24,000 bases of DNA, taken from assembly GCA_017517965.1 (NCBI GenBank), contig JAFWXR010000037.1, forward strand, positions 121,764 to 145,763, written 5' to 3'. The notes under the pieces are model-generated. The model searched no databases. It saw nothing but the letters and a program-made list of their open reading frames with translations, and was not told where the DNA came from. The DNA comes from Clostridia bacterium. Lineage in GTDB: Bacteria; Bacillota; Clostridia; Oscillospirales; Feifaniaceae. Positions 2,889 to 18,141 of the stretch are shown here, piece by piece (the first letter of the stretch is position 1; each line of letters opens with the position of its first letter). A program made the position numbers and the translations under genes.

Positions 2889-3068
2889 TTCAAGACCTCC
2901 AAAATTTTTTCATAATTGTATTATATAAAAAATTGCCATAAATGACAATGACTAATTTGTTAATATGTGAACATAATATTACTGTCGGAGGAGATATCGC
3001 CGTTAGTCAAGCGGAAGCGCTGTCGGATGATATGTTTTCCGATAAATGCAGTTGCGAGGATAAAGTCT

Positions 3069-3218
3069 ATGAAAGCTTGTATGGGCGGTATGCTCGTAGG
3101 TCTGGCAGTCGGTGTGACGGTTGCTTCTGTATATCCGATGCCGATGAAAAGATGTACGGTACGAAAAATCAAAAGACAGGTCGGTCGTGCGATTCGCAGT
3201 GTAGAAGACATGATGTGA
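3069..3218 (+). CDS. Small hypothetical membrane peptide (49 aa: one TM helix and a basic C-terminus)
   Basis: ATG at 3069 is preceded by GAGGA (3056-3060). Product: MKACMGGMLVGLAVGVTVASVYPMPMKRCTVRKIKRQVGRAIRSVEDMM. The stop lies 7 nt before the A tract of a strong terminator. The longer GTG-2967 version in the track has no SD. No family recognised. Confidence 0.45.
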   Translation: MKACMGGMLVGLAVGVTVASVYPMPMKRCTVRKIKRQVGRAIRSVEDMM

Positions 3219-3224
3219 CCAAGC

Positions 3225-3252
3225 AAAAAAGCACCCAATCGGGTGCTTTTTT
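3225..3252. terminator. Bidirectional intrinsic terminator
   Basis: A tract 3225-3230, stem gcaccc (3231-3236) / gggtgc (3241-3246), loop aatc, T tract 3247-3252. Confidence 0.8.
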
Positions 3253-3255
3253 GTT

Positions 3256-3273
3256 AATGCGGAATTCGGAATT
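3256..3273 (-). repeat. Heptad array, 2.4 units (aatgcgg aattcgg aatt on +, which reads ATTCCGA ATTCCGC ATT on minus). Left arm of cassette 1.
   Basis: Tandem 7-nt periodicity read directly. It starts 3 nt after the terminator T tract. Confidence 0.8.
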
Positions 3274-3280
3274 AAGGAAA

Positions 3281-3301
3281 GAAACTTCGTGCCGAAGTTT
3301 C
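3281..3301. repeat. Hairpin module gaaacttcg-tgc-cgaagtttc associated with the heptad arrays
   Basis: 9-bp stem. Near-identical stem arms (gaaacttcc / ggaagtttc) recur at 12855-12874. In both places the hairpin sits 6-7 nt from the inner end of a heptad array. Confidence 0.6.
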
Positions 3302-3340
3302 GATTAAATTGTAGGGGAGGACCTATATTTCCTCCCGTTT

Positions 3341-3562
3341 TCATTTCTTTGATTTTGGATAGGGTTCTTTACAATCCGTTCTGCCTGCAAGATAATCCAT
3401 ACTCGTATTAAGAGCATCTGCAACCTTGATACATTGCTCAAAACTTAAATATCTTTTTCCGTTTTCGATTTTTGAATAGTCGCTCTGGTCTATCCCTGTG
3501 AGCATTTGCATTTTTACCTGTGTATATCCGCGTTCTTTTCGCAGTTCTTTAAGCCTGTTCAT
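3341..3562 (-). CDS. XRE-family helix-turn-helix transcriptional regulator (73 aa)
   Basis: MNRLKELRKERGYTQVKMQMLTGIDQSDYSKIENGKRYLSFEQCIKVADALNTSMDYLAGRTD is a typical HTH_3 domain. The start at Met15 of the track ORF (ATG 3562-3560) has SD aggtga 4 nt upstream. The longer 3604 start would overlap the divergent promoter and adds a non-homologous extension. A GGGAGG/CCTCCC hairpin (3315-3336) follows the stop. Confidence 0.85.
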   Translation of the reverse strand: MNRLKELRKERGYTQVKMQMLTGIDQSDYSKIENGKRYLSFEQCIKVADALNTSMDYLAGRTDCKEPYPKSKK

Positions 3563-3597
3563 AACATCACCTGATATTATTATGGCAAATTGACCTA

Positions 3598-3626
3598 TTG
3601 ACATTAGGGTGAAACTGACCTATAAT
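3598..3626 (+). promoter_or_regulatory. Consensus sigma-A type promoter for the 50-aa gene (TTGACA-17-TATAAT)
   Basis: TTGACA 3598-3603, 17-nt spacer, TATAAT 3621-3626, about 20 nt upstream of the SD gaggtga and the ATG at 3647. It overlaps two direct copies of AAAYTGACCTAT (3587-3598 and 3612-3623). Confidence 0.65.
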
Positions 3627-3646
3627 TTGGTGGAAGAGGTGATATT

Positions 3647-3799
3647 ATGGCAGATTATAAACAGATGTATTTAACACTGCTTGATGCGACCGAAAAAGCA
3701 ATAAATCAACTTATTTCGGCACAGCGTGCCTGCGAAGAGATTTATATTCTTTCTGCCAAGGAAGAAGAAGAAAATAAAAAACCGATTTCTGTTATTTAA
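3647..3799 (+). CDS. Small hypothetical protein (50 aa, predicted helical, acidic tail), divergent partner of the XRE gene
   Basis: Below the 60-aa cut-off of the ORF track. ATG 3647 with SD gaggtga 4 nt upstream and a perfect promoter. Product: MADYKQMYLTLLDATEKAINQLISAQRACEEIYILSAKEEEENKKPISVI, stop TAA 3797-3799. No family assigned. Confidence 0.6.
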   Translation: MADYKQMYLTLLDATEKAINQLISAQRACEEIYILSAKEEEENKKPISVI

Positions 3800-3854
3800 C
3801 GGGACGCCGTCCCCTATGATAAGGTAATAGTGAAAAGTGAATAAGTTCGGTTGA

Positions 3855-3886
3855 AATTCCGAATTACGCATTCCGAATTCCGAATT
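3855..3886 (+). repeat. Heptad array, 4.4 units (attccga attacgc attccga attccga att). Right arm of cassette 1.
   Basis: Exact 7-nt register read directly. It ends 5 nt before the A tract of the rny terminator. Confidence 0.9.
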
Positions 3887-3891
3887 GAAAT

Positions 3892-3921
3892 AAAAAAGAG
3901 ACCAATTTGGTCTCTTTTTTT
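3892..3921. terminator. Bidirectional intrinsic terminator (serves rny on minus and the 50-aa gene on plus)
   Basis: A tract 3892-3897, stem gagacc (3898-3903) / ggtctc (3909-3914), loop aattt, T tract 3915-3921. The rny stop codon (3920-3922) lies in the tract. Confidence 0.8.
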
Positions 3922-5476
3922 ATTTCGCAACGTCCTGTGCGCGCTTTTCTCTTATTACGTTTACCTTTATCTGACCGGGGTATTCAAGTTCACCCTCAAT
4001 CTTCTGGGCGATTTCCCTTGCGAGAATTACTAATCTGTCGTCACTTATCTTTTCGGGGTTGACCATAATACGAACTTCACGGCCTGCCTGAATTGCAAAT
4101 GACTTTTCAACGCCGTCAAAGCTCGTCGTAATTTCTTCAAGCTTTTCAAGACGCTTTATGTAGTTCTCAAGGTTTTCTCTTCTTGAACCGGGGCGTGCAG
4201 CGGAAACTGCATCTGCCGCCTGAACGAGAGCAGCAATCGTATACTTGGGAGCAACGTCACCGTGGTGGCTTTCGATAGAATTGACAACCACGTCATTTTC
4301 CTTATACTTCTTTGCAACGTCCGAACCGAGCTGAACGTGTGAACCTTCAATCTCATGGTCGAGCGCCTTGCCGAGATCGTGCAGGAGACCTGCCCTTCTT
4401 GCGAGATTTACGTCAAGACCGAGCTCGGATGCCATAACGCCTGCTATATGCGACACTTCAATAGAGTGGAGAAGAACGTTCTGACCGTAACTCGTCCTGT
4501 ATTTGAGTTTACCTAAAAGTTTGACAATTTCGGGGTGAAGATTTACGATGCCTGCTTCAAGAGCAGCCTTTTCACCCTCCTGCTTGATGATGTTGTTGAT
4601 GTCTTTTCTCGTCTTATCAACGATTTCTTCAATCTTTGCGGGATGAATACGACCGTCGTGAATAAGCCTTTCGAGTGACAGACGTGCAATTTCCCTGCGG
4701 ACAGGGTCAAAGCAGGAAACTGTGATAACTTCGGGAGTATCGTCGATTATAAGGTCAACGCCCGTAAGTGTTTCAAGTGCCTTTACGTTTCTGCCTTCAC
4801 GGCCGATTATACGGCCCTTCATCTCATCGCTGGGGATGGGGACTACCGATATGGTTGCTTCTGCAACGTATTCGGGTGCACAGCGCTGTATAGCCTGAGC
4901 AATGATTTCTCTTGCTTTTTCCGTGCTTTCGTCGTTGAATTTCTGCTCCGACTCCTTTATCTTGAGGGCACGCTCGTGATCGAGCTCCTGCTCAAGCTGG
5001 GAGAGAAGCATTTCCTTTGCCTGCTCCGTGGTGTAGCCCGAAATTCTTTCAAGCGCTTCCCACTGCTGCTTTTTGATGTTTGCAACATCCTCCATCTGTA
5101 CTTCTACTTCGTGGAGTTTTTCGGCAAGTTTTTCTTCCTTCTTTTCGATTGCATCGTACTTTTTGTCGATGCTCTCTTCCTTCTGATTCAGACGCCTTTC
5201 CTGGTTCTGAACTTCTTTTCTGCGCTCCTTGAGCTCGGCTTCCATTTCCGTTCTGCTGCGCAGGATTTCTTCCTTAGCTTCGAGTATTGACTCTTTTTTC
5301 TTGCTTTCAGCCGCCTTGATAGCGTCATTAACTATTCTTTTTGCCTCTGTTTCGGCAGAGCCGATCTTGCTTTCGGCAACCCTTTTTCTGTGGCTTATGC
5401 CGATGAAGAATGCAATTACAAAAACAAGTAAAAGAGCAACCACGCCGACAACTAACTGAACTGGTGTAAACGGCAT
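3920..5476 (-). CDS. rny: Ribonuclease Y
   Basis: N-terminal TM helix, long Glu/Lys-rich coiled coil, KH domain ([29 protein letters not shown]) and HD domain ([18 protein letters not shown] ... [10 protein letters not shown] ... ESHHGD). 518 aa, typical for rny. SD aaaggag upstream. Confidence 0.95.
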
Positions 5477-5539
5477 TTTCCGGTTTCTCCTTTTCTGATA
5501 TTTAAGATTAAGCCTTTAAAGGCATATAATCTAACTTAT

Positions 5540-5569
5540 ATTATAAATTTTAATTGTACTTTTTGTCAA
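5540..5569 (-). promoter_or_regulatory. Candidate rny promoter (TTGACA-18-TATAAT on minus strand)
   Basis: Complement of tgtcaa at 5564-5569 and of attata at 5540-5545. A 12-nt palindrome gcctttaaaggc (5512-5523) lies in the resulting 5' UTR. Confidence 0.5.
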
Positions 5570-5606
5570 GAAAAGTTTAACATTATATTAAGAAAAATAT
5601 GCTACA

Positions 5607-5635
5607 TTTACAACGCCGATGTTTTATGTTATAAT
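5607..5635 (+). promoter_or_regulatory. Candidate rnf operon promoter (TTTACA-17-TATAAT)
   Basis: TTTACA 5607-5612, 17-nt spacer, TATAAT 5630-5635, 36 nt upstream of the preferred rnfC start. Confidence 0.6.
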
Positions 5636-5670
5636 AACGGGTGGCAAATTACGAAAAGTTGAGGTATAAA

Positions 5671-6858
5671 ATGCTTTTAACATTCAGAGGCGGCGTTGAC
5701 GCCGGCAATAAAAGTGAATTTTTAAGCGGCTCGGTAATAAATACGATTGGTGCAGGGGAAACGCTTGTGTTGCCCGTTCCGTTTGGCTGTACACCCGTGG
5801 TTGAAGCGGGGGAGAGGGTGCTTGCAGGGCAGGTTGTTGCCGTGTCCGACAATGAGTACGGCGCATCTCTGTCGAGTGCGGTGTCAGGTACTGTTGTAAA
5901 GGCAACCGCATCACGTATTACCATTGAAAATGATGGTGAAAATACGCTATGTGACAGGCTTGAGGCAGATGACCCGATAACGCTTCTCCGTGACGCAGGG
6001 GTGACTGACCGTTTCGGTTTTTCTGCTGCGCAGAAGGTGGCAAACGCACCGGCACTCTACATCATCAGTTGCGTTGAGGACCAGCCGTATATGGTAAACG
6101 TGCAGGCTCTTTTGTCCTGCAGGGCTGACGAGTTTATCGGCGGTATAAAACTGCTCGAAAAAATAAGTGAAAATGCGCACATTGTGATTTGTACGACGCC
6201 CGACCTTTCTGAGTATGCTTCAAAGATTTCCGAGGCGCTTATGGAGGATGAAAGGGTACAGTTTCTCACGGTCAGCGGAAAGTATCCGCAGAGCTGGCCC
6301 CATATTTTAAAGCGTACCGTTACGACTGAGGAGAGTTGCGAAGTTATAGGGACGGAGGAGCTTTGTAATATTTACAGGGTGTTTAAGACGAGAATGCCCG
6401 TGACAGAAAAAATAGTTACCTTAAGCGGTGACTGTATGAGACGTGCAGAGGTCTTTTCGGTGCCCTACGGTACCTGTGTGTCAACCCTCATTAAAGCGGG
6501 GACGAGCTTTAAACGTGAACCGCTGAAGGTTGTCAAGGGCAGTGTTATGAACGGGGACGCCATATACAATATGCGTTCGCCCATAGATCGCACCGTATCA
6601 AGCGTGCTGACGCTTTTTGACCATCAGCACCGCTACGCAGGCGAATCGCATTGTATAAGCTGCGGAAGGTGTGACAACGTCTGTCCCGAAGGATTAAGCC
6701 CCGGAAGTATAATCAAGGCGTATAAGTTAAATGATACGGCGACACTGAGCAGGCTTAGCGTAAGCTCGTGCACACTGTGCGGTTGTTGCTCGTTTATATG
6801 TCCCGCAAGGGTAAATCTGCCGCTTATTTTAAGAAGTGCGCAGCTTATGGGAGAATAA
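5671..6858 (+). CDS. rnfC: RnfC-like subunit of an Rnf-type electron transport complex (divergent nucleotide/flavin-binding region)
   Basis: Preferred start is ATG 5671 (SD gaggt 5 nt upstream, product MLLTFRGGV...) rather than GTG 5641. RnfC-like N-terminus (FRGGV, SSAVSGTV), a YPQ motif, an SLBB-like middle region and two C-terminal 4Fe-4S motifs (CISCGRCDNVCP, CTLCGCCSFICP). First gene of the C-D-G-E-A-B order. Confidence 0.8.
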   Translation: MLLTFRGGVDAGNKSEFLSGSVINTIGAGETLVLPVPFGCTPVVEAGERVLAGQVVAVSDNEYGASLSSAVSGTVVKATASRITIENDGENTLCDRLEADDPITLLRDAGVTDRFGFSAAQKVANAPALYIISCVEDQPYMVNVQALLSCRADEFIGGIKLLEKISENAHIVICTTPDLSEYASKISEALMEDERVQFLTVSGKYPQSWPHILKRTVTTEESCEVIGTEELCNIYRVFKTRMPVTEKIVTLSGDCMRRAEVFSVPYGTCVSTLIKAGTSFKREPLKVVKGSVMNGDAIYNMRSPIDRTVSSVLTLFDHQHRYAGESHCISCGRCDNVCPEGLSPGSIIKAYKLNDTATLSRLSVSSCTLCGCCSFICPARVNLPLILRSAQLMGE

Positions 6859-6861
6859 TTT

Positions 6862-7875
6862 ATGAAAAAACATAAAAAACTTCTGCTTGTGTCGGCTTCG
6901 CCACATCTCAAGACGGCACAGGCTACATCGTGGATAATGTTCAACGTGCTTATTGCACTTTTACCTTCGTTTGTTGCATCGTGTTACTTTTTCGGACGAA
7001 GGGCGTTATTTATAACACTTATTTCGGTATCTTTTTCACTCGGCTTTGAGTATCTTTCAAGGCTGATGATGGGCAAACTTCCCACCGTAAGCGACCTCTC
7101 GTGTGTCGTGACGGGTGTTATCATTGCCTTTTGTCTGCCCGTAACGGTGCCCGTGTGGCTGGTTGCAGTAGCAAACTTTTTTGCTATTGTAATCGTCAAG
7201 CAGTGTTTTGGCGGAATAGGGCTCAACATCGTAAATCCGGCGGCGGCGGCGCTGTCGTTGCTGATGGTTTCCTTCACTGCCTCCATGACGAAATTTATTG
7301 CACCGCTTCTTGGCTTTGCGCAGATAATTCCCGAGGATGCAACGGTTGTGACAACGGCACTCTCACAACTCAAAGCAAGCGGGCAGACCCCTCAGAATTT
7401 ATTTAACATCTTTATGGGAAATACCGCAGGCAATATAGGTGAGACGTCGTCGTTTCTGCTTCTTATAGGCGGTGTATACCTGATTGTAAGACGTATTTCA
7501 AACTGGCGTATTCCCGTATCATTTATAGGTACGGTTGCGATTATTTCGCTTGTAAAGTCGTTTGACTTTACATTTATGCTGACGCAACTTTTCAGCGGTA
7601 CGCTTTTCCTTGCGGCATTCTTTATGGCGGTTGACCCCGTTACGTCGCCTCAGTCGCAGTCGGGCAAGGTGGTTTTCGGTGTTATATGCGGTGTTGCCAC
7701 CTGCTATATACGCTTCTTCGGCACTTATACGGAGGGTGCTGTGTTTGCGGTGCTCATTGCAAATCTCGTAACGCCTGTTATTGACAGCCTTTTACCCGTA
7801 AAATATAAGGGCGTCCGTACGGTTGAAAAGAAGAAACTGTCGGATTTTCTGCCTAAAAGGAGGAAAGCACAATGA
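6862..7875 (+). CDS. rnfD: RnfD subunit (polytopic membrane, NqrB/RnfD family)
   Basis: SASPH near the N-terminus, FGGIGLNIVNPA, DATVVTTALSQLK (position of the flavinylated Thr), AVDPVTSP and GAVFAVLIANLVTPVID. All match RnfD hallmarks. Confidence 0.9.
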   Translation: MKKHKKLLLVSASPHLKTAQATSWIMFNVLIALLPSFVASCYFFGRRALFITLISVSFSLGFEYLSRLMMGKLPTVSDLSCVVTGVIIAFCLPVTVPVWLVAVANFFAIVIVKQCFGGIGLNIVNPAAAALSLLMVSFTASMTKFIAPLLGFAQIIPEDATVVTTALSQLKASGQTPQNLFNIFMGNTAGNIGETSSFLLLIGGVYLIVRRISNWRIPVSFIGTVAIISLVKSFDFTFMLTQLFSGTLFLAAFFMAVDPVTSPQSQSGKVVFGVICGVATCYIRFFGTYTEGAVFAVLIANLVTPVIDSLLPVKYKGVRTVEKKKLSDFLPKRRKAQ

Positions 7876-8438
7876 AAGAATTTTTCCTCTCTACGCCCCT
7901 TCGCCGTGTGATAACGGCAGGTGTTGCAATTCTTCTGTCGTTCGGCATTATGGTCGGTGTGCTCACCCCTCTGCTTATATTCGGTGAGGACAGGGTTATA
8001 TCGGCTGCCGTAGCAAACGTTTTTCCCACGGCGACGGATTTTGAAGAAGAACACATAAGGTATGACAATGAAATAGAGTCTCTCTATGCCGTTATGACCG
8101 ATGAAACGGTGGCAGGTTACCTCTATAACGTAAATGCAAACGGCATTTCGGGACAGATAAATTTCTACGTCGGTCTTGATATGACGGGCAGGGTTATAGG
8201 TATATATTTCCCTTATCTTGATGAGCCCGTTTCCTACGGTGATATGACCGAGTTTAACAATTTTATAGCCTCTTTTACCGGCAGAACAGGCCCCTTTGCA
8301 GGGGTTGAGGGTGCGGCAACGCTCGCAGGGGACATATCTCTCGTAGGCGGTGCACATCACACCTGTTACGCGGTTATCGGCGGTGTCAATGCCGTGACGG
8401 AGGCTTTTAACGATGAATTTGCAAATGAGGCGGAATAA
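7872..8438 (+). CDS. rnfG: RnfG-like subunit (FMN_bind-type fold, membrane anchored)
   Basis: ATGA overlap with the rnfD stop, SD aggagg. N-terminal anchor helix, GISGQINFYVGLDMTGRVIG core, C-terminal ...LVGGAHHTCYAVIGGVNAVTEAF aligning to the SGATxTS region of RnfG/NqrC. Confidence 0.8.
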   Translation: MKEFFLSTPLRRVITAGVAILLSFGIMVGVLTPLLIFGEDRVISAAVANVFPTATDFEEEHIRYDNEIESLYAVMTDETVAGYLYNVNANGISGQINFYVGLDMTGRVIGIYFPYLDEPVSYGDMTEFNNFIASFTGRTGPFAGVEGAATLAGDISLVGGAHHTCYAVIGGVNAVTEAFNDEFANEAE

Positions 8439-9029
8439 ATGAAAATACGAAACTTCGCCTCGGGTGATATTTTTACCAGAAACCCGCTTTTGACGGGAGT
8501 TTGCTTTTTTACTCTCGTTATCACAATGACGATATCACTTCTCAACGGTCTGGCAACGGGCATCTTTGTGACCTGCGCCACCATGGTATCGCTCGTTGTG
8601 AGAAAGCTTATATCGCTTTACATTGACGAGAGGTGGCATCTTGCTCTTTACGCTCTGGCTGTCTGTGCCGTAATATCCGTCGGTGAACTGGCGGCAACGG
8701 CAATTTATCCCGACTTTGCTTCGAGAATGGCGCTCTATCTGCCTCTTGCGGCGATATACTGTCTTTCCGACAGGTCGTTTGACTTTACGGCAAAGCCTAT
8801 GCGTGCAACCGTTGAGACAACTCTTTTCAACTGTATCGGTTTTACGGCTGTCTGCACTGCAATAGGTACCGTGCGTGAGTTACTGGCTTTCGGCACGTTA
8901 CTCGGCATACCGGTGATGAAAAATTATCTTAAGATGCCTGCTATGGTGCTTCCAATAGGCGGTATGATAGTTTTCGCATTCGGTCTTGCACTTATTAACC
9001 ACATTAAAGGCAAAGGAGGCAAAATATGA
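8439..9029 (+). CDS. rnfE: RnfE subunit (NqrD/RnfE family membrane protein)
   Basis: RNPLLTGVCFF and LYLPLAAIYCL align to the NPxLxxxLGLCP and LPLIVTNC motifs. A GTVRELLAFGTLLG motif is present. Six hydrophobic helices. Correct position in the operon. Confidence 0.85.
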   Translation: MKIRNFASGDIFTRNPLLTGVCFFTLVITMTISLLNGLATGIFVTCATMVSLVVRKLISLYIDERWHLALYALAVCAVISVGELAATAIYPDFASRMALYLPLAAIYCLSDRSFDFTAKPMRATVETTLFNCIGFTAVCTAIGTVRELLAFGTLLGIPVMKNYLKMPAMVLPIGGMIVFAFGLALINHIKGKGGKI

Positions 9030-9583
9030 TAGAACTGCTTTCTCTTGTCATAACGGCAATGATTGCCGAAAATCTGCTCTGTGCAAGGGCTATGGGTATG
9101 GAAACGGCACTTTTTGACCGTCACGACTACCTGCATTTCGGCGTATTCACGGTTGTTTCGTCTACGGTGCTCTCACTTTTTGCGTGGCTTTTTGACTTCT
9201 TTGTGTTTGCCCGTTTCGACTTACAGTTTCTTCGTGTTTTTGCCTATATACCGCTTCTTTTTACGGTTGTATGGGCACTGCAGTATCTGCCGAAAATAGG
9301 CGTTCATCTTGAAAAATACAAAAATGCGCTTATTTTCAACAGCGCTCTGCTCGGTGTTGCGGTAATTACCGCAGTTAAGACCTATCCTGTCTATTACGCC
9401 GTGCTTTACGGCTTTTTTGCAGGACTCGGATACATCGTTGCACTGCTTTTGTTTAACAAACTGTGCAGCAGGATAAGTAATGCCGACCTGCCCCGTGCAT
9501 TTGTGGGTATGCCCTCAAAACTTCTTATTCTTGCCCTGATGTCTCTTGCTTCAATGGCATTTACGGGAGGTGTTACGGTATGA
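9026..9583 (+). CDS. rnfA: RnfA-like subunit (NqrE/RnfA family membrane protein, divergent)
   Basis: ATGA overlap with the rnfE stop, SD aaggagg. C-terminal ...ADLPRAFVGMPSKLLILALMSLASMAFTG matches the RnfA tail (VPxxFxGxxIxLIxAGLMSLAFMGF). Correct position in the operon. Confidence 0.8.
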   Translation: MIELLSLVITAMIAENLLCARAMGMETALFDRHDYLHFGVFTVVSSTVLSLFAWLFDFFVFARFDLQFLRVFAYIPLLFTVVWALQYLPKIGVHLEKYKNALIFNSALLGVAVITAVKTYPVYYAVLYGFFAGLGYIVALLLFNKLCSRISNADLPRAFVGMPSKLLILALMSLASMAFTGGVTV

Positions 9584-10197
9584 TTATTGCACTGAAAATA
9601 TTACTTGCGATTGTAATCGTCGCAGGAAGCGGTGCCCTTTGCATATTCTTTCTCAAGGATAAGATTCCTGCCGAGAAGAAGGGGCAGTCGGTGCCGACTC
9701 AAAGGCTTACGGCTGTCGTTGCCTGCTGCGGTAACGAGCAGAGTACCGACGTTTCTTTCGACTATGCGGGCGAGCTTACCTGTGAATCGGCGTCGCACCT
9801 TTTCGGTGGCGACAAGAGTTGTCCGTATGCCTGCATCGGCTACGGTGACTGTGAAAAGATCTGTCCCGAAAATGCAATTACCATGAAAAAAGGCCTGCCG
9901 GTCATAGATTCACTCAAATGCACCTTTTGTAAGAAGTGTATTGAAATATGTCCCAAGGGACTGATAAGACCGCAGAGCTCGTCGTTCTCCTACTACGTTG
10001 CGTGCAGTAACAAGCGTTTTTCCAAGACCGAAAAGTATTGCGATACGGGCTGTAACGGCTGCGGTAAGTGCATAGAGGTATGCGAAAAGAAGGCAATTTC
10101 CTACAACGGCAGACGAGTTATAATAGACGATAATCTCTGCGATTTATGCGGAAAATGCATAGAAGTCTGCGACAGAAACGTAATAAAACACGTGTAG
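9580..10197 (+). CDS. rnfB: RnfB-like ferredoxin subunit (short form: N-terminal anchor plus poly-ferredoxin region)
   Basis: ATGA overlap with the rnfA stop, SD gggaggtg. N-terminal TM helix, then CPYACIGYGDCEKICP, CTFCKKCIEICP, CNGCGKCIEVC and CDLCGKCIEVC cluster motifs. Last gene of the operon, followed by a terminator. Confidence 0.8.
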   Translation: MIIALKILLAIVIVAGSGALCIFFLKDKIPAEKKGQSVPTQRLTAVVACCGNEQSTDVSFDYAGELTCESASHLFGGDKSCPYACIGYGDCEKICPENAITMKKGLPVIDSLKCTFCKKCIEICPKGLIRPQSSSFSYYVACSNKRFSKTEKYCDTGCNGCGKCIEVCEKKAISYNGRRVIIDDNLCDLCGKCIEVCDRNVIKHV

Positions 10198-10226
10198 AAA
10201 AAGGCATCCAATGGATGCCTTTTTTT
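10198..10226. terminator. Bidirectional intrinsic terminator after rnfB
   Basis: A tract 10198-10202, stem ggcatcc (10203-10209) / ggatgcc (10213-10219), T tract 10220-10226. Confidence 0.8.
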
Positions 10227-10258
10227 AATTCGGAATTCGTAATTCGTAATTCGGAATT
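10227..10258 (-). repeat. Heptad array, 4.4 units (aattcgg aattcgt aattcgt aattcgg aatt on +). Left arm of cassette 2.
   Basis: Begins at the nucleotide immediately after the terminator T tract. Exact 7-nt register. Confidence 0.9.
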
Positions 10259-10265
10259 GAGGTTG

Positions 10266-10505
10266 TTAAAATGTTTCGTTATCTTTTTCAAAAATCTTCA
10301 TTGTAAGTCGGGTGGCTGTGTCAATGCCTTCTTCGTAATATTCCTCCATCATAATCTCTGATTGTTGCAGTTTCAGCAGGCTGATTGAATGATACAATTT
10401 TTTCTGTTCTTCACTTAAACTTTCAAGTAGATTATTTTGAAGTTCTCTGATTTTTTTGCTGTATTCTGAATATTGGGATTGTCTGTGAGAATTTTCAAAA
10501 AACAT
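10266..10505 (-). CDS. Small hypothetical helical protein (79 aa), divergent partner of the RHH gene
   Basis: ATG 10505 with SD gaggt 5 nt upstream on the minus strand. Product MFFENSHRQSQYSEYSKKIRELQNNLLESLSEEQKKLYHSISLLKLQQSEIMMEEYYEEGIDTATRLTMKIFEKDNETF has heptad-like hydrophobic spacing. No family confidently recognised. Confidence 0.6.
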   Translation of the reverse strand: MFFENSHRQSQYSEYSKKIRELQNNLLESLSEEQKKLYHSISLLKLQQSEIMMEEYYEEGIDTATRLTMKIFEKDNETF

Positions 10506-10518
10506 AGTATACCTCGAT

Positions 10519-10552
10519 ATATGTTATTAATATGTTATAAATCATAACATAT
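10519..10552. promoter_or_regulatory. Operator-like cluster of the 9-mer ATATGTTAT (two direct copies 11 bp apart plus one inverted copy)
   Basis: ATATGTTAT at 10519-10527 and 10530-10538, and ATAACATAT at 10544-10552. Copies 2 and 3 form a perfect 9-bp inverted repeat with a 5-bp spacer. A fourth copy at 10591-10599 overlaps the SD/ATG of the RHH gene. Confidence 0.55.
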
Positions 10553-10597
10553 TAAAGAAACTTAAGTCAACATATACTCTATGTGAGGTGATATGTT

Positions 10598-10786
10598 ATG
10601 AATGACAAACTCATTATAAACAAGAGGAAACTGAAAGGTGATGACGGATACAAAACCTTTTCAGTGAGGATAAAAGACGAAACGGTAGAAAACTTGAATA
10701 AATTGGCAAAAGAAACAAACCGTTCAAGAAATGAATTGATAAATATTTTGTTGGAATATGCTATAGCAAACAGCAAAATCGTGTAA
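10598..10786 (+). CDS. Ribbon-helix-helix (CopG/Arc/MetJ-like) DNA-binding protein, 62 aa
   Basis: SD gaggtg 7 nt upstream. KTFSVRIKDETVENLNKLAKETNRSRNELINILLEYAI follows the beta-strand, helix, helix pattern of RHH repressors. Confidence 0.75.
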   Translation: MNDKLIINKRKLKGDDGYKTFSVRIKDETVENLNKLAKETNRSRNELINILLEYAIANSKIV

Positions 10787-10822
10787 TTTCAATGATTTTT
10801 GATGAAATCAAAAATCTACCAT

Positions 10823-10854
10823 AATTACGCATTCCGCATTCCGAATTCCGCATT
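10823..10854 (+). repeat. Heptad array, 4.4 units (attacgc attccgc attccga attccgc att). Right arm of cassette 2.
   Basis: Exact 7-nt register. It abuts the terminator A tract at 10855. It is preceded by the hairpin gatttttga/tcaaaaatc (10794-10816) and the spacer TACCAT, the same spacer as at 12875-12880. Confidence 0.9.
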
Positions 10855-12308: not shown

Positions 12309-12836
12309 ATGTCAAACGTGAAAAAGACGGTCATTTCGGCACTGTGTGTCGCTCTGTGTGTCGTGCTGCCGATGGCTTTTCATGCTATACCCGGGGCGGC
12401 AAATGTATGCTCGCCCATGCATATTCCCGTGCTTTTGTGCGGTCTTATCTGCGGTCCGCTGTACGGTCTGCTTTGCGGTCTCGCAGGACCTGCTTTGTCA
12501 ACGCTTCTGACGGGTATGCCACCTGCGGCGTATCTGCCGAGTATGCTTGCCGAGCTTGCCGTTTACGGTCTTGTAACGGGCGTTATGATGAGGCTTGTAC
12601 ACACCGGAAAAAAGTATGCCGACCTTTACATAAGTTTAGTTACCGCAATGCTTATGGGCAGGGTGGTTGCAGGTATTCTCAGGGCATTTGTTTTTGCCCC
12701 CGGAAGTTACTCGATGAGTGTCTGGATAACGAGTTATTTTATTACCTCATGGCCGGGGATAGTTATTCATCTCATCCTCGTGCCGACGGTATATTTTGCA
12801 GTTAAAAAAAGTAATGTTTTAACGGTTAATTCGTGA
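12309..12836 (+). CDS. ECF-transporter S-component-like membrane protein (substrate unknown)
   Basis: Preferred start is Met21 of the track ORF (ATG 12309, SD ggggga 8 nt upstream). SPMHIPVLLCGLICGPLYGLLCGLAGPALSTLLTGMPP ... MLAELAVYGLVTG matches the PMHIPVLLxG...GMP signature I associate with ECF_trnsprt-type S components. No EcfA/EcfT genes are adjacent. Confidence 0.7.
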   Translation: MSNVKKTVISALCVALCVVLPMAFHAIPGAANVCSPMHIPVLLCGLICGPLYGLLCGLAGPALSTLLTGMPPAAYLPSMLAELAVYGLVTGVMMRLVHTGKKYADLYISLVTAMLMGRVVAGILRAFVFAPGSYSMSVWITSYFITSWPGIVIHLILVPTVYFAVKKSNVLTVNS

Positions 12837-12854
12837 ATTGCACCGTTATTCAAT

Positions 12855-12874
12855 GAAACTTCCAAGGAAGTTTC
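12855..12874. repeat. Hairpin module gaaacttcc-aa-ggaagtttc (second copy of the 3281-3301 module)
   Basis: Arms differ from the 3281-3301 copy at one position per arm, and the change is compensatory (g:c becomes c:g). It is followed by TACCAT and then the heptad array. Confidence 0.6.
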
Positions 12875-12880
12875 TACCAT

Positions 12881-12912
12881 AATTCCGCATTCCGAATTCC
12901 GCATTCCGAATT
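12881..12912 (+). repeat. Heptad array, 4.4 units (attccgc attccga attccgc attccga att)
   Basis: Perfect alternation of the two commonest units. It abuts the terminator A tract at 12913. Confidence 0.9.
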
Positions 12913-12943
12913 AAAAAAAGCAGTCCGTCGGGACTGCTTTTTT
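12913..12943. terminator. Bidirectional intrinsic terminator (lipid kinase gene on minus, ECF-S-like gene on plus)
   Basis: A tract 12913-12919, stem gcagtcc (12920-12926) / ggactgc (12931-12937), loop gtcg, T tract 12938-12943. It lies 1 nt from the stop at 12945-12947. Confidence 0.85.
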
Positions 12944-12944
12944 C

Positions 12945-13826
12945 TTATCTTATTATCTGTATCGTGTCGTGTAAACAGCGTATTTCCGCCGTCTTGAAGC
13001 TGCCTCCGTATTCACCGTCAACCGTCCAGCCTATCTTGTGATTAACTGTAAAGGCAAAGTCCTTGCCATGAAAGAATGAGACCATATCCGTGTCGAATTT
13101 GTTGAGAGTCAGCGAGGTTATTATCTTGTTGAATTCAATAATGTCTTTCGGCGCTTTTACAAGCATAATTTCAAAGATACCGTCAGTAAAATCAACGAGG
13201 TCTTTATCAAGTTTTATCATACCTGCCACCGAGGTCGAATTGCTCACCGCACAATAGAGATAATCACCCTCTATTTCGGTGCCGTCAACCGTTATTTTTG
13301 CGTGGTACGGCTTTATTTCACCGAGGCTTTTTATACCCTCGAGCACGTATGCAAAGTGGCCGAGTGAATTCTTTAAATTCTGCGGTGTCGAGTAGGACGT
13401 TTTCGTAAATGCACCGAAGCACGCTATGTATGAAAAATACCTGCCGTTCATTCTGCCGATGTCAAAATACTTCGGTTCACCGTTTATGATTGCCTTTATC
13501 GCCGAAGGTATGTCTTTGGGCAGACCGAGGCTTGAAGCAAGGTCGTTTGTCGAGCCTGCCGGGATGTAACCTATCGGAATCGGCTTTTCAAGCGACATAA
13601 CGCCTGCTATCGTTTCGTTGAGCGTACCGTCACCGCCCACGCATATGACCGTGTCAAAATTTTCACCGTGCTCGGTGATATAATCCCTCGCATCACCTGA
13701 TGACGTGGTTATGTGTACGACGGGGTCGATACCGTGTGAGCAGAGGGGCGAAATTATATCGTATAAAGCCGTTTTCGACTGTGTTTTACCTGCTTTGGGG
13801 TTTACTATAAGTAATACGTCTTTCAT
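12945..13826 (-). CDS. Diacylglycerol kinase family lipid kinase (DagK/YegS/BmrU type)
   Basis: LLIVNPKAGK N-terminus, the VICVGGDGTLNE nucleotide-binding motif and GYIPAGSTNDLA. 293 aa. 4-nt overlap with the upstream nth stop. Confidence 0.88.
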   Translation of the reverse strand: MKDVLLIVNPKAGKTQSKTALYDIISPLCSHGIDPVVHITTSSGDARDYITEHGENFDTVICVGGDGTLNETIAGVMSLEKPIPIGYIPAGSTNDLASSLGLPKDIPSAIKAIINGEPKYFDIGRMNGRYFSYIACFGAFTKTSYSTPQNLKNSLGHFAYVLEGIKSLGEIKPYHAKITVDGTEIEGDYLYCAVSNSTSVAGMIKLDKDLVDFTDGIFEIMLVKAPKDIIEFNKIITSLTLNKFDTDMVSFFHGKDFAFTVNHKIGWTVDGEYGGSFKTAEIRCLHDTIQIIR

Positions 13827-14458
13827 TTGTTGTTCTCCTTACAAAAGTCTGACAGGGGACAAATATCACATTTCGGCTTGCGTGCCGTGCAGTATTCCCT
13901 GCCGAAAAGCACCAGCCTGTGACAAAAATCCGACGAGGTTTCGGGGGTGAGCACTTTACGGAGTGCAAATTCAACCTTTTCGGGCTCTTTCGACAGAGCA
14001 AGACCGAGTCTGTTTGATATCCTTATACAATGAGTGTCAGCAACGACGGCAGAGGGCTGTTTGTATATATCGCCCAAAATGAGATTAGCCGTCTTCCTGC
14101 CAACACCGGGCAGTGAAAGCAAATCCTCCATATTGTCGGGCACTTTTGAATTAAATTTTTCTATGAGCATTTTTGCACTGTCTTTGATATTCTGCGCTTT
14201 GGTGCGATAAAAACCGCAGGGCTTTACCGCATTCTCAAGCTCGGTTATATCTGCCTGTGCAAACGACTCAAGCGTCGGAAATTTCACAAAAAGGTCGGCA
14301 CACACGATGTTTACACGGGCATCGGTGCACTGTGCGGACAGACGTACTGCAAAAAGCAGTTCATAGTCCGTCGAATATTGCAGCGAGCAAAGCGCATCGG
14401 GATAGAGTTTTTCAAGCGCAATTTCCGCTTTTTTTGCAATTTCTTTTATCTTCATCAA
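13823..14458 (-). CDS. nth: Endonuclease III (DNA-(apurinic/apyrimidinic site) lyase)
   Basis: HhH-GPD motif (LLSLPGVGRKTANLILG), catalytic D in VADTHCIRISNRLGL, and a C-terminal 4Fe-4S loop (CTARKPKCDICPLSDFC). 211 aa. Confidence 0.92.
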   Translation of the reverse strand: MMKIKEIAKKAEIALEKLYPDALCSLQYSTDYELLFAVRLSAQCTDARVNIVCADLFVKFPTLESFAQADITELENAVKPCGFYRTKAQNIKDSAKMLIEKFNSKVPDNMEDLLSLPGVGRKTANLILGDIYKQPSAVVADTHCIRISNRLGLALSKEPEKVEFALRKVLTPETSSDFCHRLVLFGREYCTARKPKCDICPLSDFCKENNK

Positions 14459-14510
14459 ATCACCTTAAGGGAATATTAACACATTGCTGACAAAAATTAA
14501 AGTGTTTCTA

Positions 14511-14539
14511 TTGAAATAGTGCGTGTTTTATATTATATT
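14511..14539 (+). promoter_or_regulatory. Candidate promoter of the proA cluster (TTGAAA-17-TATATT)
   Basis: TTGAAA 14511-14516, 17-nt spacer, TATATT 14534-14539. This would give a leader of about 200 nt. Confidence 0.4.
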
Positions 14540-14689
14540 ATTATATATATCTAAAATAATGAATTGCCTGACGGCGATTATAGTAGCAAAAATGAAGCAA
14601 AGCGAAGTTTGCGAAAAAAACAGGGTTCCCGACACGAGGCAAATGAAATGCGTCGTGGTGGGAAAGAGGACGAGCAACGGAGCGATTAA

Positions 14690-14711
14690 GTCAGCAAATA
14701 TATTTGCTGAC
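14690..14711. promoter_or_regulatory. Perfect 22-nt palindrome gtcagcaaata|tatttgctgac in the proA leader
   Basis: Read directly. It lies 40 nt upstream of ATG 14751 and has no U tract after it. The half-site TTGCTGAC recurs at 14485-14492. Confidence 0.4.
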
Positions 14712-14750
14712 GGATGATGCGAAGTTTGCGAGGACGAAATGGAGGAAAGT

Positions 14751-16031
14751 ATGGGAGTTCGGGAGTATGCTCTGCATGCGAAAGAAGCGGCCATAATATG
14801 CGGTACGCTTGATGACGATACGAAAAACAGAGCGATAAATGCGATATGCGACGCACTTATTGCACAGAGTGAAAAAATAGAAAATGCAAATGCGCTTGAT
14901 ATAGAACTTGCGGATAAGGACGGGCTTGCACCTGCACTTCGAAGCAGACTCGGCTTTTACGGTAAAAAGCTTACCGATACGGTTGAGGGGGCAAGGGCGC
15001 TGGCAGGACTTCCCGACCCGTGTAACAGGATTATTTTCCAAAGGGACCTTGCAGATGGGCTGACGCTTACCAAAAAGAGTTGCGGAATCGGTGTTATCGG
15101 TGTCATATTCGAATCCCGTCCCGATGCACTCGTGCAGATTGCTATGCTCTGCATCAAAAGCGGTAATGCGGCTATACTCAAGGGCGGTAAAGAGGCGCAT
15201 GCCACAAATACCGCACTTGCCGAGATTATCACAGAGGCAGGTATAGAGGCAGGTCTGCCCGACGGATTTCTGACACTTCTCACTTCGAGAGAGGAGATTA
15301 ACGAGCTTTTGTCGTGTGACGACTGCGTTGACCTGCTTATCCCGAGGGGAAGCGGTGCATTCGTCAAATACATAATGGACAATACCAGAATACCCGTTAT
15401 GGGGCATGCAGACGGTGTCTGTCATATATACGTTGACGGCTCTGCCGATATGAAAAAGGCAACGGATATAGTTGTCGATTCAAAAACGCAGTATCCTGCC
15501 GCCTGCAACAGCGTTGAAACGCTTCTTGTTGACGCCACGGCTGCGCAGACATTTCTGCCTGAAGTGACAAAGGCACTTCGGGACAAGGGTGTCACGCTTG
15601 TGGGCTGTCCGAGGACCTGTGCGGTTATCGACTGTGAGCAGGCGACTGAGGAGGACTGGTCGACAGAATACGTAGGACTGAAACTGTCGGTTCGAATCGT
15701 TGACAGTGTGTACGAGGCGGTACGCCACATAAACAAATACGGCTCGGGACATACCGACTGTATCGTGACGCAGGATAACGCTGTCGCAGATTTCTTTATA
15801 AACAACGTTGATTCGGCAGGCGTATACAAAAACTGCTCCACCAGATTTGCCGACGGTTACAGATACGGCTTCGGGGCAGAGGTTGGAATATCTACGGGCA
15901 AGCTTCACGCAAGAGGGCCGGTCGGCATCGAGGGGCTTGTCAGTTACAGATATCTGCTTGAGGGGGACGGTGACATCGTTGCCGACTTTGCAAGCGGTAA
16001 AAGAAAATTCATTCATCAGGGAGAGGTTTAA
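14751..16031 (+). CDS. proA: Gamma-glutamyl phosphate reductase
   Basis: ALDH-fold ProA motifs: KNRAINAICDAL, ENANALDI, GVIGVIFESRPDA, ILKGGKEA, LIPRGS, VETLLV, HTDCIVT and STRFADGYRYGFGAEVGIST. Preferred start is ATG 14751 (GGAGGA at 14741-14746). The in-frame ATG 14739 given in the track is the alternative. Confidence 0.92.
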   Translation: MGVREYALHAKEAAIICGTLDDDTKNRAINAICDALIAQSEKIENANALDIELADKDGLAPALRSRLGFYGKKLTDTVEGARALAGLPDPCNRIIFQRDLADGLTLTKKSCGIGVIGVIFESRPDALVQIAMLCIKSGNAAILKGGKEAHATNTALAEIITEAGIEAGLPDGFLTLLTSREEINELLSCDDCVDLLIPRGSGAFVKYIMDNTRIPVMGHADGVCHIYVDGSADMKKATDIVVDSKTQYPAACNSVETLLVDATAAQTFLPEVTKALRDKGVTLVGCPRTCAVIDCEQATEEDWSTEYVGLKLSVRIVDSVYEAVRHINKYGSGHTDCIVTQDNAVADFFINNVDSAGVYKNCSTRFADGYRYGFGAEVGISTGKLHARGPVGIEGLVSYRYLLEGDGDIVADFASGKRKFIHQGEV

Positions 16032-16033
16032 AT

Positions 16034-16375
16034 ATGAGAAACAAGGTAACGGTTAAAATTCTTGATTCGACTTACACAATACTTGCTGACGAGTCGGAGG
16101 ATTACGTGCAGAGCATCGCAAAAAAAGTCGATGCAAAGACAAGAGAGGTTATGGCTGCAAATGAGCATGCTTCGCTCACTATGGCGGCGGTGCTTACCTC
16201 CTTCACTTACTGTGATGAGATTGAAAAGGTTATGAAATCGACGAACAATCTGCGCTCACAGATAAGAGAGTACATTGATGAGGTGTCAAAATACCGTGCC
16301 GAAGCTGAAGAGGCTCGCAGGGCACTCACCAAGCTTCAGAATGAGAATGCTGAGCTTCGTATGAAACTCAGATGA
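16034..16375 (+). CDS. zapA: Cell division protein ZapA
   Basis: 113 aa. N-terminal VTVKILDSTYTILADESEDYVQSIAKKVD (the ZapA pattern) and a C-terminal coiled coil. It starts 2 nt after the proA stop. Confidence 0.8.
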   Translation: MRNKVTVKILDSTYTILADESEDYVQSIAKKVDAKTREVMAANEHASLTMAAVLTSFTYCDEIEKVMKSTNNLRSQIREYIDEVSKYRAEAEEARRALTKLQNENAELRMKLR

Positions 16376-18141
16376 TGGGAAAAGTTCTTTCTCCGTGCGG
16401 AAGCATTGAGGCGGTGTGTGCCGCCGTTGCAAACGGGGCGCATGAGATTTATCTCGGCGGCGGTGACCACAATGCAAGGCAGTATGCCAAAAATTTTTCT
16501 GCCGATGAAATTGCGGGTGTTGTCGCTTTCTGTCACGAAAACGGCGTAAAGGTGCTCGTTACACTCAACATTCTTGAGGGGGACAGGGAAATAGCGTCGG
16601 CACTCGCCTTTGCAAAGCAGATGCGGGATATCGGCGTCGATGCCCTTATCGTGCAGGACTGGGGTCTGGCGTGTCTTTTGAGGGAATATATTCCCGATAT
16701 GGAGCTTCACGGCTCGACACAGATGTCGGTCCATTCGCTTGACGGCGCAAAGGCGGTAGCAGAACTTGGTATGAAAAGGGTTGTGCTTGCCAGAGAACTG
16801 TCATCAAAAAACATTAAGTATATTACCGACAACTGCGGTATAGAAACCGAGATTTTCGTTCACGGTGCACTCTGCTACGCCTATTCGGGTCAGTGTCTTA
16901 TGAGTGCAGTAATCGGCAGACGAAGCGGTAACAGAGGTCGCTGTGCAGGTCCTTGCAGACTGCCGTATACGGTAAGCGGTAAAAAGGGGTATTTTTTGTC
17001 ACTCAAGGATTTGTGCCTTGCCGACAAGATGGGCGAGGTGGCAAAAACGGGTGCATCCGCTTACAAGATTGAGGGCAGGATGAAGCGTGCCGAATACGTC
17101 GGCGCTGTCACAAGGGCGTATGCAAGGGGCGACTATAACAAAAAGACGCTTTCCGAAATTTTTTCGAGAAGCGGTTTTACCTCATCTTTCTTTGATGGAA
17201 GAAAAGGTGCTTTTGACCTCGGTGTCAAGGTTGATGAAGATATAAAAAAATACTCCGCACTTCTGTCTAAAGAGAGGGTGCGGTATGAGAGGCTTATCTC
17301 ACATATAAAGCCTGTGTCAGCACCGCCTGCAGATGAACAGACGGCAAAGGATTTTATCGCATCAAAAACCTTTGCAAAGAAAAAGGGTGAAAACAAGTTG
17401 TATTGCTTTGCGCTGAATTTGTCTCAGGCAAAGGTGCTCGGCGGTGCGGATAAAGTTTTTTTACCTGTTGAGGAGATAATTAAAAATTCTCTGTCGGGCT
17501 TCGGTGTGCATCTGCCAAAAATAATTACCGATGATGAGCGTTCGCATTATGCCGAAATGCTGTGCAAGGCGAAAAAACTCGGCAATACACTTGTTTGTGT
17601 TGAGAATATCGGGCAGGTTGCTCTTGTAAAAGAGTGCGGTCTTGATTTTATATGCGGTATATCGCTCAATGCTTTTAACAGATTTTCGGTGCAGTATCTC
17701 TACTCACTCGGCGCAAAGGACGTGCTTCTTTCCGCAGAGTGCAGTGCACCGCAGATAAGGGATATAACCAAGGCGTGTGCAGGCGGTATATTTGCCTACG
17801 GCAGACTGCCTCTTATGGTCAGCGAAAGTTGTATCGGCAAAAACGCCCTCGGCTGTGACGGCAGAAGGTGCCGTATGCCACAGACGCTCTCCGATCGGGC
17901 AGGACAGAAATTTTTCGTGACGAAGGCACCCAAGTGCAGAAACGTGATATACAACTCCGTCCCCGTCTGGCTTGCAGACAGGGAGAGTGAACTTAAAGAA
18001 CTCAATCTGTCGTCAAGGGCGCTCTTCTTTACCGATGAATCGCCTGCAAAGTGTGCAGAGGTTATGCTCTGCTACAAGGAGAGAAAAGGCAAGCCTTCGG
18101 GTGAATTCACAAGGGGAATGTTTGCCAAAAAAGTTTTGTAA
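16372..18141 (+). CDS. Peptidase U32 family protein
   Basis: EIFVHGALCYAYSGQCLMS fits the U32 signature E-x-F-x2-G-[SA]-[LIVM]-C-x4-G-x-C-x-[LIVM]-S. It is followed by SGNRGRCAGPCRLPY. N-terminal GAHEIYLGG ... NARQYAKNFS. ATGA overlap with the zapA stop. Confidence 0.9.
   Translation: MMGKVLSPCGSIEAVCAAVANGAHEIYLGGGDHNARQYAKNFSADEIAGVVAFCHENGVKVLVTLNILEGDREIASALAFAKQMRDIGVDALIVQDWGLACLLREYIPDMELHGSTQMSVHSLDGAKAVAELGMKRVVLARELSSKNIKYITDNCGIETEIFVHGALCYAYSGQCLMSAVIGRRSGNRGRCAGPCRLPYTVSGKKGYFLSLKDLCLADKMGEVAKTGASAYKIEGRMKRAEYVGAVTRAYARGDYNKKTLSEIFSRSGFTSSFFDGRKGAFDLGVKVDEDIKKYSALLSKERVRYERLISHIKPVSAPPADEQTAKDFIASKTFAKKKGENKLYCFALNLSQAKVLGGADKVFLPVEEIIKNSLSGFGVHLPKIITDDERSHYAEMLCKAKKLGNTLVCVENIGQVALVKECGLDFICGISLNAFNRFSVQYLYSLGAKDVLLSAECSAPQIRDITKACAGGIFAYGRLPLMVSESCIGKNALGCDGRRCRMPQTLSDRAGQKFFVTKAPKCRNVIYNSVPVWLADRESELKELNLSSRALFFTDESPAKCAEVMLCYKERKGKPSGEFTRGMFAKKVL

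Follow-up and report, generated by a model that had tools for sequence, protein, structure and literature searches.

Intergenic heptameric repeats, among them the short tandemly repeated repetitive (STRR) type of cyanobacteria, were reportedly described by Mazel in 1990 and by Mrazek in 2007. The REP/BIME (repetitive extragenic palindromic/bacterial interspersed mosaic element) repeats of enterobacteria and the BOX repeats of pneumococci are short modular repeats that accumulate after genes, often as inverted pairs. The heptameric intergenic simple sequence repeats (SSRs) and STRRs treated by Rehm et al. 2015 (PMC4692102) occur in excess, form inverted pairs between convergent genes, turn over rapidly and have no accepted function, and the published explanation of the excess is slippage-driven repeat growth. 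Here, we describe a locus at positions 3256-3886 of a 24,000-nt stretch of contig JAFWXR010000037.1 from a Clostridia bacterium (the window, below, is this whole stretch), in which two inverted heptamer arrays bracket a divergent pair of small genes. One gene encodes an XRE (Cro/C1-type helix-turn-helix, HTH) repressor and the other a 50-residue protein, p50. Our preferred explanation, to which we give a probability of roughly 60%, is that two independent layers are superimposed at this site: an accessory repressor/p50 module, and heptamer arrays that belong to the terminators and not to the module. The initial annotation of the locus had taken the arrays as the boundaries of a possibly mobile or exchangeable unit.

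The left array (3256-3273, plus strand; 2.6 copies by direct reading) is AATGCGG AATTCGG AATT (AATGCGGAATTCGGAATT). The right array (3855-3886) reads, on the minus strand, AATTCGG AATTCGG AATGCGT AATTCGG AATT, and Tandem Repeats Finder (TRF) reports it with period 7, 4.6 copies and the consensus AATTCCG. Further arrays of period 7 were found by TRF at 10227-10258, 10824-10854 and 12881-12912; over the four array sites that TRF reports, copy number is 4.4-4.6, with 84-92% matches. The repeat unit in the window is AATKCGK, and the five arrays are all head-to-tail and all between genes. A single-heptad remnant is present at position 1800, in the gap 1770-1844. A two-unit probe, CGGAATTCGGAAT, used with at most two mismatches, has 14 matches against 1.02 expected, and 14 or more were reached in 0 of 100 shuffles. 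The two arrays around the gene pair form an inverted pair (18 nt, 94% complementary) with 631 bp between the outer edges, so that the initial annotation is confirmed in this respect by coordinates, TRF and complementarity; the inverted-repeat arms at the ends of such units are 18-26 nt long and 85-94% complementary.

When the arrays are oriented to read AATKCGK, all five begin 0-5 nt past the T-run of the adjacent core gene's intrinsic terminator. The left array starts 3 nt past the T-run of a bidirectional terminator (3224..3253; A6-stem-loop-stem-T6, with perfect 13-nt arms at 3224-3236 and 3241-3253) that is common to the upstream open reading frame (ORF; 2967-3218, plus strand) and the XRE gene, and that folds into a strong hairpin from the minus strand. 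The right array starts 5 nt past the T-run of the predicted bidirectional terminator (3892..3920) of rny (3920-5476, minus strand), which also ends p50 transcription. The five array-bearing terminators belong to the small ORF that precedes the cassette, rny, rnfB, a CNNM gene and a DAGK gene, and are bidirectional A-tract/stem/T-tract hairpins whose stems are unrelated. The arrays are inverted because the convergent core genes each have their own terminator plus array; the gap that holds the cassette contains a pair of terminators, and hence a pair of facing arrays. One shared terminator, a single array (12881-12912) and no cargo are found in the gap 12837-12944, and the convergent prs/prmA gap of the same species has a terminator without an array. 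The rny-rnfCDGEAB block (window 3887-10226) has an array on each side, facing away from the block.

Inward of three arrays the repeat continues as AATTAWGG(T/A)A followed by a hairpin with a 9-bp stem (3273-3301, 10790-10826 and 12852-12884). Within the cassette this hairpin, GAAACTTCG-gca-CGAAGTTTC and then TTTCCTT (3281..3301, minus strand), is terminator-like for the XRE transcript, and hairpins of the same kind lie past the arrays at 12852-12876 and 10790-10812. The initial annotation had both genes running outward through an array into the terminator of the neighbouring core gene; of the two, only p50 on the plus strand clearly has to do so; the XRE transcript on the minus strand first meets the hairpin at 3301-3281. 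Elsewhere, in metagenome-assembled genomes (MAGs) of Oscillospiraceae/Ruminococcus, roughly half of the arrays continue as AATT-N3-5-GGT(G/A) plus a short tetraloop GC hairpin (loci L010, L014, L037, L074, L077 and L078; L-numbers denote other loci examined, and W the module of the window). The ~147-bp segments between facing arrays in L010 and L078 have matching ends and no Rfam match. Rfam searches at gathering thresholds (window plus six array loci) and at permissive thresholds (3150-3950) gave only sub-threshold, terminator-driven matches. The folds of both 3′ untranslated regions leave the arrays mostly unpaired in their centroid structures. An RNA duplex between the two transcripts is rejected, since the divergent outward transcripts both carry the (MCGMAUU)n sense and are not complementary.

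Six contigs of the same species (L001-L006) are 99.99-100% identical to the window and show no array variation. Two of these contigs break off at the right array (3855), either exactly at its inner edge or no more than 2 nt from it, which is what a multi-copy repeat would lead one to expect. The density of arrays in this species is five in ~35 kb. The sister taxon represented by L218 is close (RNase Y protein 97% identical, flanks 92% identical in nucleotides, both gene pairs kept), and neither of its orthologous junctions has an AATKCGK array. The rny terminator is conserved in L218 where the array is missing, and beside it there is only AATTGAT AATTGAA AATTTCA; beside the rnfB terminator a different repeat, (CATATCG-N10-11)x5, is found. 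The latter segment, L218 150-245, lies at the junction where the window has the array 10227-10258, and consists of five 17-18-bp units starting with CATATCG, plus a GAAATTCC..GGAATTTC hairpin. The rnfB terminator of L218 is 90% identical to the window terminator at 3224-3253, and not to the rnfB terminator of the window; terminator hairpins appear, from these identities, to be exchanged between sites.

No arrays occur in 603,611 bases from 80 metagenome rny loci, nor in 84,695 bases of other loci. A scan for the heptad over one genome per species gave at least 120 matches. Among the matches listed, AATTCGT/AATTCGG heptads are present in Nostocales, Acidobacteriota, Planctomycetota, Bacteroidota, Chloroflexota, Oscillospiraceae/Ruminococcus and others; array pairs that face each other (plus then minus) outnumber the reverse order by 19 to 8; most facing pairs, those of related Oscillospiraceae MAGs included, enclose just 50-170 bp of non-coding DNA with hairpins; and the arrays mostly do not adjoin terminators. 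Literature searches found no paper with the AATKCGK unit as a tandem string, and one with the single heptad returned only noise.

The arrays resemble the heptameric SSR/STRR repeats (Rehm et al. 2015, PMC4692102) in being tandem 7-nt units, head-to-tail and intergenic, in strong excess over chance, with inverted pairs between convergent genes, rapid gain and loss between close relatives and no established function. They differ in the unit, which is AATKCGK and not one of the described GGGAATC, GGGGAYT or CCCCAGT types, and, in this species, in abutting terminator T-runs; often AATTAWGGT(G/A) and a hairpin follow. The likeness to REP/BIME and BOX lies in short repeats that gather past gene ends, often as inverted pairs, in a modular build with one module of variable copy number, and in hairpin parts beside terminators; in contrast to those families, the variable module here is just 7 nt, and the REP-like part at this locus is provided by nearby TGTAGGG-hairpin elements and not by the arrays.

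The arrays, alone or with the inner hairpin, could also be a small repeat, mobile or templated but non-autonomous, that homes in on terminator T-tracts and has recently proliferated in this lineage, the cassette being a bystander between two insertions. Such a repeat would account for the same heptad at five independent terminators with unrelated stems, for the lack of it at orthologous terminators in the sister with 92% identity, for the presence of AATTAWGGTA and a hairpin in three of the window's five copies as well as at many loci in Oscillospiraceae, for the same unit in many phyla, and for contigs that break at an array. However, neither a transposase nor a defined second end nor a target duplication was found, the arrays of other genomes lie mostly away from terminators among the matches listed, and slippage-driven growth is the published explanation (PMC4692102). 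We consider a mobile repeat unlikely; it is compatible with the terminator-array part of our preferred explanation and is no competitor to it.

The gene pair forms the second layer. The XRE gene (3341..3562, minus strand) encodes a Cro/C1-type HTH repressor of 73 residues (Pfam HTH_3, 56.5 bits against a cut-off of 23, E=2.8e-15). An alternative upstream start at 3604 gives a protein of 87 residues; the shorter form is preferred because GGTGA sits 4-5 nt upstream of its start, and the extension of the longer form has non-synonymous changes between relatives. Orthologues in L218, L213b and L214 are 84-90% identical. The p50 gene (3647..3799, plus strand) is divergent from it across a control region of 84 bp (3563..3646), which is nearly identical in L218, L213b/L214 and L229. 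The p50 promoter, TTGACA-17-TATAAT at 3598-3626, matches the consensus at 12 of 12 positions and is one of two such promoters in 20 kb. Direct repeats of TGACCTAT lie at 3591-3598, abutting the -35 hexamer, and at 3616-3623, overlapping the -10 hexamer. A weaker promoter-like site on the minus strand, 3604-3576, is directed at the XRE gene.

A divergent Cro/C1-type HTH partner of 67-88 residues accompanies p50 in 10 of 10 modules examined (W, L218, L207, L209, L213a, L213b/L214, L224, L229, L138 and L232). Wherever both neighbours are visible, the module sits between a plus-strand gene and a minus-strand gene, that is, between convergent genes; the neighbour pairs are NTP-transferase/SpoIIID, MatE/OGG, HAD/PNPase, histidine kinase/unknown, F420-ligase-like/unknown and obg/ftsK. 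Modules of the window type, with ...TTGACCTATTGACATTAGGGTGAAAYTGACCTATAAT... in the control region, recur between the HAD and PNPase genes (L213b, L214) and in one further setting (L229), with module identities of 81-90% for L214 and L229. Heptad arrays are missing from eight other contexts of the XRE/p50 pair, L207, L209, L213, L214, L218, L224 and L229 among them. The homology between module copies runs from the XRE stop codon, or from just inside the gene, to the p50 tail, and never includes the arrays: between W and L214 it covers only 3338-3773 (81%), and between W and L218 only 3384-3771 (88%). The module has 35.9% G+C against 46.1% in the rest of the window, close to the hand count of ~38% given earlier, and lies 9-16 points under its host in all nine modules measured.

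The module differs between genomes in orientation and in presence. In L218 it occupies the same rny-adjacent gap but is turned round: the alignment is reverse for the rny-rnf block and forward for the module. Orientation is identical in all same-species contigs, both orientations are known only between the sister taxa, and there is no invertase in the window. L213 has two tandem modules where L214 has one. The module junctions of these two loci are direct repeats of 34-50 bp, L214 lacks one module exactly between such repeats, and a gain or loss can be accounted for by these direct repeats. The 3′ ends of the HAD gene and of all p50 genes there are formed by 'GGAAAAATAAAAAGAGCCGAAAGGCTCTTTTTTT', which spans the last codons, the stop codon and the terminator (L213 3640-3668, 4152-4190 and 4872-4910; L214 3632-3668 and 4163-4195).

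The initial annotation proposed a comparison of the rny region in relatives. The metagenome RNase Y relatives, at 62-77% identity and with no matches to the window's rny neighbours, are too distant to have yielded a clean 'empty site'. Neither L219-L221 nor any of the 80 metagenome rny loci searched has a module downstream of rny. L219, whose RNase Y is 82% identical, has a rearranged neighbourhood in which the DAGK gene comes directly after the rny terminator. There, the genes next to rny are those for DAGK, EndoIII, aldehyde dehydrogenase, ZapA and U32 (window 12945-18141), and therefore the rny-rnf block has the opposite orientation relative to the DAGK-U32 genes. The earlier view of the gene pair as a modular accessory unit is upheld by its other loci, the inversion in L218, presence and absence in L213/L214, its lack at other rny loci and its low G+C.

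The p50 protein belongs to a large unannotated family with a conserved N-terminus of 36 residues and a variable acidic/lysine tail. It has no match in Pfam, NCBIfam, PHROGs, PADLOC or PDB sequences, and a Pfam search with 84 diverse members returned nothing beyond single chance-level matches. Close relatives form 187 clusters of 47-57 residues, with several copies per genome, and an exhaustive profile search brought the family to at least 783 clusters at 50% identity, every one of small proteins. An almost invariant pattern, M[AP]DYKQMYLTLLDATEKAINEL[IV]SAQRACEELYILS, describes the N-terminal 36 residues, and invariant and near-invariant residues persist across 84 distant members. In comparison with the more distant copies, synonymous codon changes greatly outnumber non-synonymous ones, for example by 16 to 4 in the first 36 codons; therefore, p50 is a translated gene under purifying selection. 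AlphaFold (AF2) predicts one continuous helix over residues 2-44 (mean pLDDT, the predicted local distance difference test score, 89.8), in agreement with the helical protein initially predicted. A literature search on the p50 motif found nothing.

The N-terminus of p50 is 89-100% identical across modules, whereas the partner HTH proteins are 22-39% identical across types. With a conserved p50 and diverged repressors, p50 is therefore unlikely to work by binding its own repressor; as far as these identities go, the lack of co-evolution between the two argues against a pairing of the SinI/SinR or toxin-antitoxin kind. The gene pair resembles a minimal repressor-controlled switch, like those of Cro/C1 repressors with a divergent small gene (phage immunity switches, C-protein units, SinR/SinI). 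The shared traits are a small XRE HTH protein, a short common control region with repeats over the promoter, and a second product that is small and helical. Unlike Cro, the second product is not an HTH protein; unlike SinI and SinR, the two do not co-vary; and the module is chromosomal, essentially absent from phage, plasmid and viral collections, with no restriction or other effector attached. A phage immunity switch is rejected, the family being missing from those collections. The sole matching 'phage' record, L232 (MT835649.1 22118-25804, 'UNVERIFIED: Bacteriophage sp.'), holds obg, ftsK and an HTH/p50 module, and looks like bacterial chromosome.

We propose that the XRE protein would bind the TGACCTAT repeats, repressing p50 and its own weaker promoter. 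On derepression, p50 would be made in quantity and in bursts from the perfect-consensus sigma-70 promoter, and would act on a conserved component of the host, which it probably contacts as a helix or coiled coil, and not on its own repressor. The module is a chromosomal accessory unit of Oscillospirales/Clostridia that lodges in terminator gaps between convergent genes, and, as one deletion and one inversion suggest, recombination between any short repeats that happen to flank it may cause its gain, loss and inversion. Independently, (AATKCGK)2-4 arrays, as a rule with AATTAWGG-N and a short hairpin behind them, would have spread in this species beside the T-runs of bidirectional terminators, probably as a local bloom of widespread, functionally unexplained intergenic heptamer repeats.

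Could the pair be toxin-antitoxin-like, with p50 as the toxin and XRE as antitoxin and repressor? This would explain a multi-copy, low-G+C and patchy distribution. Below threshold, the XRE protein matches HipB/Y4mF, PezA and MqsA-type antitoxin models. Genomes carry more than one copy: two modules lie in L213, and the locus-tag prefix UIG59 is common to two proteins. The loci are also variable and low in G+C. Type II systems with XRE-type antitoxins (HipB, HigA, MqsA) are similarly small, have an HTH partner and are patchy, multi-copy and low in G+C. However, the genes here are divergent and not co-transcribed in 10 of 10 modules, and the lack of co-variation between p50 and its partner is unexpected for a cognate binding pair. 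In addition, p50 is an acidic soluble helix without a recognisable toxin fold or a match to a toxin or defence family, and the plasmid collection and IMG/VR contain no member of its family, the lone 'phage' record being an obg-ftsK chromosomal fragment. A toxin-antitoxin function is, in our judgement, very unlikely.

Several points weigh against the separation into two layers. Both gaps with two arrays hold modules, and the three other convergent gaps, which have a single array, a remnant or none, are empty; judged on these five gaps, some association of arrays with modules may exist. The inversion in L218 is the product expected from recombination between inverted arrays, and arrays may matter for rearrangement here. 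In two unrelated MAGs, arrays tightly bracket a four-helix-bundle gene like those of 23S rRNA intervening-sequence proteins (L100 1159-1586; L033 60-570). The TGACCTAT repeats are a candidate operator, assigned from sequence repetition. The module copies at different loci may reflect either transfer between genomes or old paralogy with rearrangement; no shared core genes by which to calibrate the host distance of module-bearing genomes were found.

Details of the two bracketed four-helix-bundle genes are as follows. The L100 gene starts 16 nt past the last full heptad of one array, and its stop codon runs into the other, beside dnaE. The proteins of L100 and L033 are 64% identical (a Clostridia MAG and 'Bacterium BMS3Bbin03'), and the arrays point inward in L100 and outward in L033. 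Downstream of the gene in L033 (540-1010) are five tandem units of ~90-130 bp, each with a heptad run (TTCGTAATTCCTAATTCGTAATT) and a conserved ~60-bp spacer.

The model put forward in the initial annotation makes the inverted arrays the ends of a mini-cassette, possibly mobile or exchangeable, that inserts between back-to-back terminators and can carry varied cargo. In its favour is a twin at 10227-10854, which we can confirm: the two units measure 631 and 628 bp and have the same layout with unrelated cargo, the twin carrying DUF6809 and CopG-type ribbon-helix-helix (RHH) genes at 30.3% G+C. A homologue search with DUF6809 returned only the DUF6809 protein itself. The inverted order of the arrays, the flipped module in the sister taxon, the 19 to 8 excess of facing pairs among the matches listed and the arrays bracketing the four-helix-bundle gene in L100 and L033 also agree with the model. 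Nevertheless, the arrays adjoin core-gene terminators with or without cargo, the same module exists elsewhere and in L218 without arrays, and homology between copies stops at the genes. The outer flanks, ...TTTTTTGTT and ...TTTTTTATTTC, share no target-site duplication. The unit contains only the HTH protein and p50, and thus no transposase or recombinase; its neighbours are PrsA-like, RNase Y, the Rnf operon and CNNM, and the 24-kb window has no integrase. Of the two genomes in which the four-helix-bundle gene is bracketed, L033 has arrays that face outward, and most facing pairs among the matches listed hold 50-170 bp of non-coding DNA. Facing arrays also flank the core gene purN in a Bacteroidales MAG (L098 1868-2580), each directly past the end of a neighbouring gene; therefore, bracketing can arise without any cassette, and the 'cargo' in that case is a core gene.

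Integron cassettes are also small units with interchangeable cargo and a recurring layout; in contrast, the units here are scattered, have no attC site (no Rfam or attC-like match) and no integrase, and carry their own promoters (12/12) in both directions. Of the traits of a transposon or a miniature inverted-repeat transposable element, terminal inverted repeats are present, but a target duplication, ends that move with the cargo and a transposase or recombinase are all lacking. As in an inverton, inverted repeats flank the segment, and the inversion between sister taxa resembles that of an inverton, with no invertase in the window. We therefore regard the arrays as followers of terminators, found once without cargo and not found at the module's other loci, and not as boundaries or mobility apparatus of a unit; the mini-cassette as proposed is improbable.

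A further reading would make the AATKCGK arrays and inner hairpin the footprint of a so far unrecognised cross-phylum repeat-spreading process that seeds identical heptads at terminators and gene ends, with facing repeats turning the small genes they enclose (XRE/p50, RHH/DUF6809, four-helix-bundle) into recombinase-free cassettes that can be flipped and exchanged, a scenario we find equally improbable.

Other small repeats lie at the locus. A REP-like element, TGTAGGGG-hairpin-CCCGT, is present at 3310..3338 (plus strand), with an inverted, weaker copy (TAGGGGACGGCGTCCCGT) at 3799-3816 (minus strand). Similar TGTAGGG-hairpin-CCGT elements cluster near XRE/p50 modules (L207 4888-5072, L213 4207-4400 and L214 4208-4572), and L207 has five tandem REP-like copies, with 46-bp spacing, beside spoIIID. 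A short GC hairpin without a T-run, GGGAC-gcc-GTCCC, lies right past the p50 stop codon (3801..3813, plus strand). The terminator hairpins of unrelated genes at 1805-1840 and 12815-12850 share AATAACGG-N-CAATTCACRAATT-N-CCGTTA, another small intergenic repeat family. The ORF at 2967-3218 (plus strand), between a PrsA-like gene and the cassette, encodes 83 residues with a hydrophobic centre and no family match, and among the contigs examined it is present only in those of the same species.

What is new at this locus is an unannotated family of small proteins under an XRE repressor and a new unit type of heptamer repeat, both of known kinds. Preferring the two superimposed layers, we conclude that the striking layout splits into two ordinary parts, and that the idea of a mobile cassette should not be carried on as stated. 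One heptad unit extends from cyanobacteria to Clostridia, and its presence at five terminators in one species and at none in a 92%-identical sister provides material on why heptamers accumulate in bacteria. The p50 proteins constitute a very large family of single helices of about 50 residues that is missing from Pfam, NCBIfam and PHROGs, and they stay near-invariant while their repressors are swapped, which, as a pattern of sequence conservation, suggests that p50 may have a conserved cellular target in gut Clostridia that has so far been overlooked.

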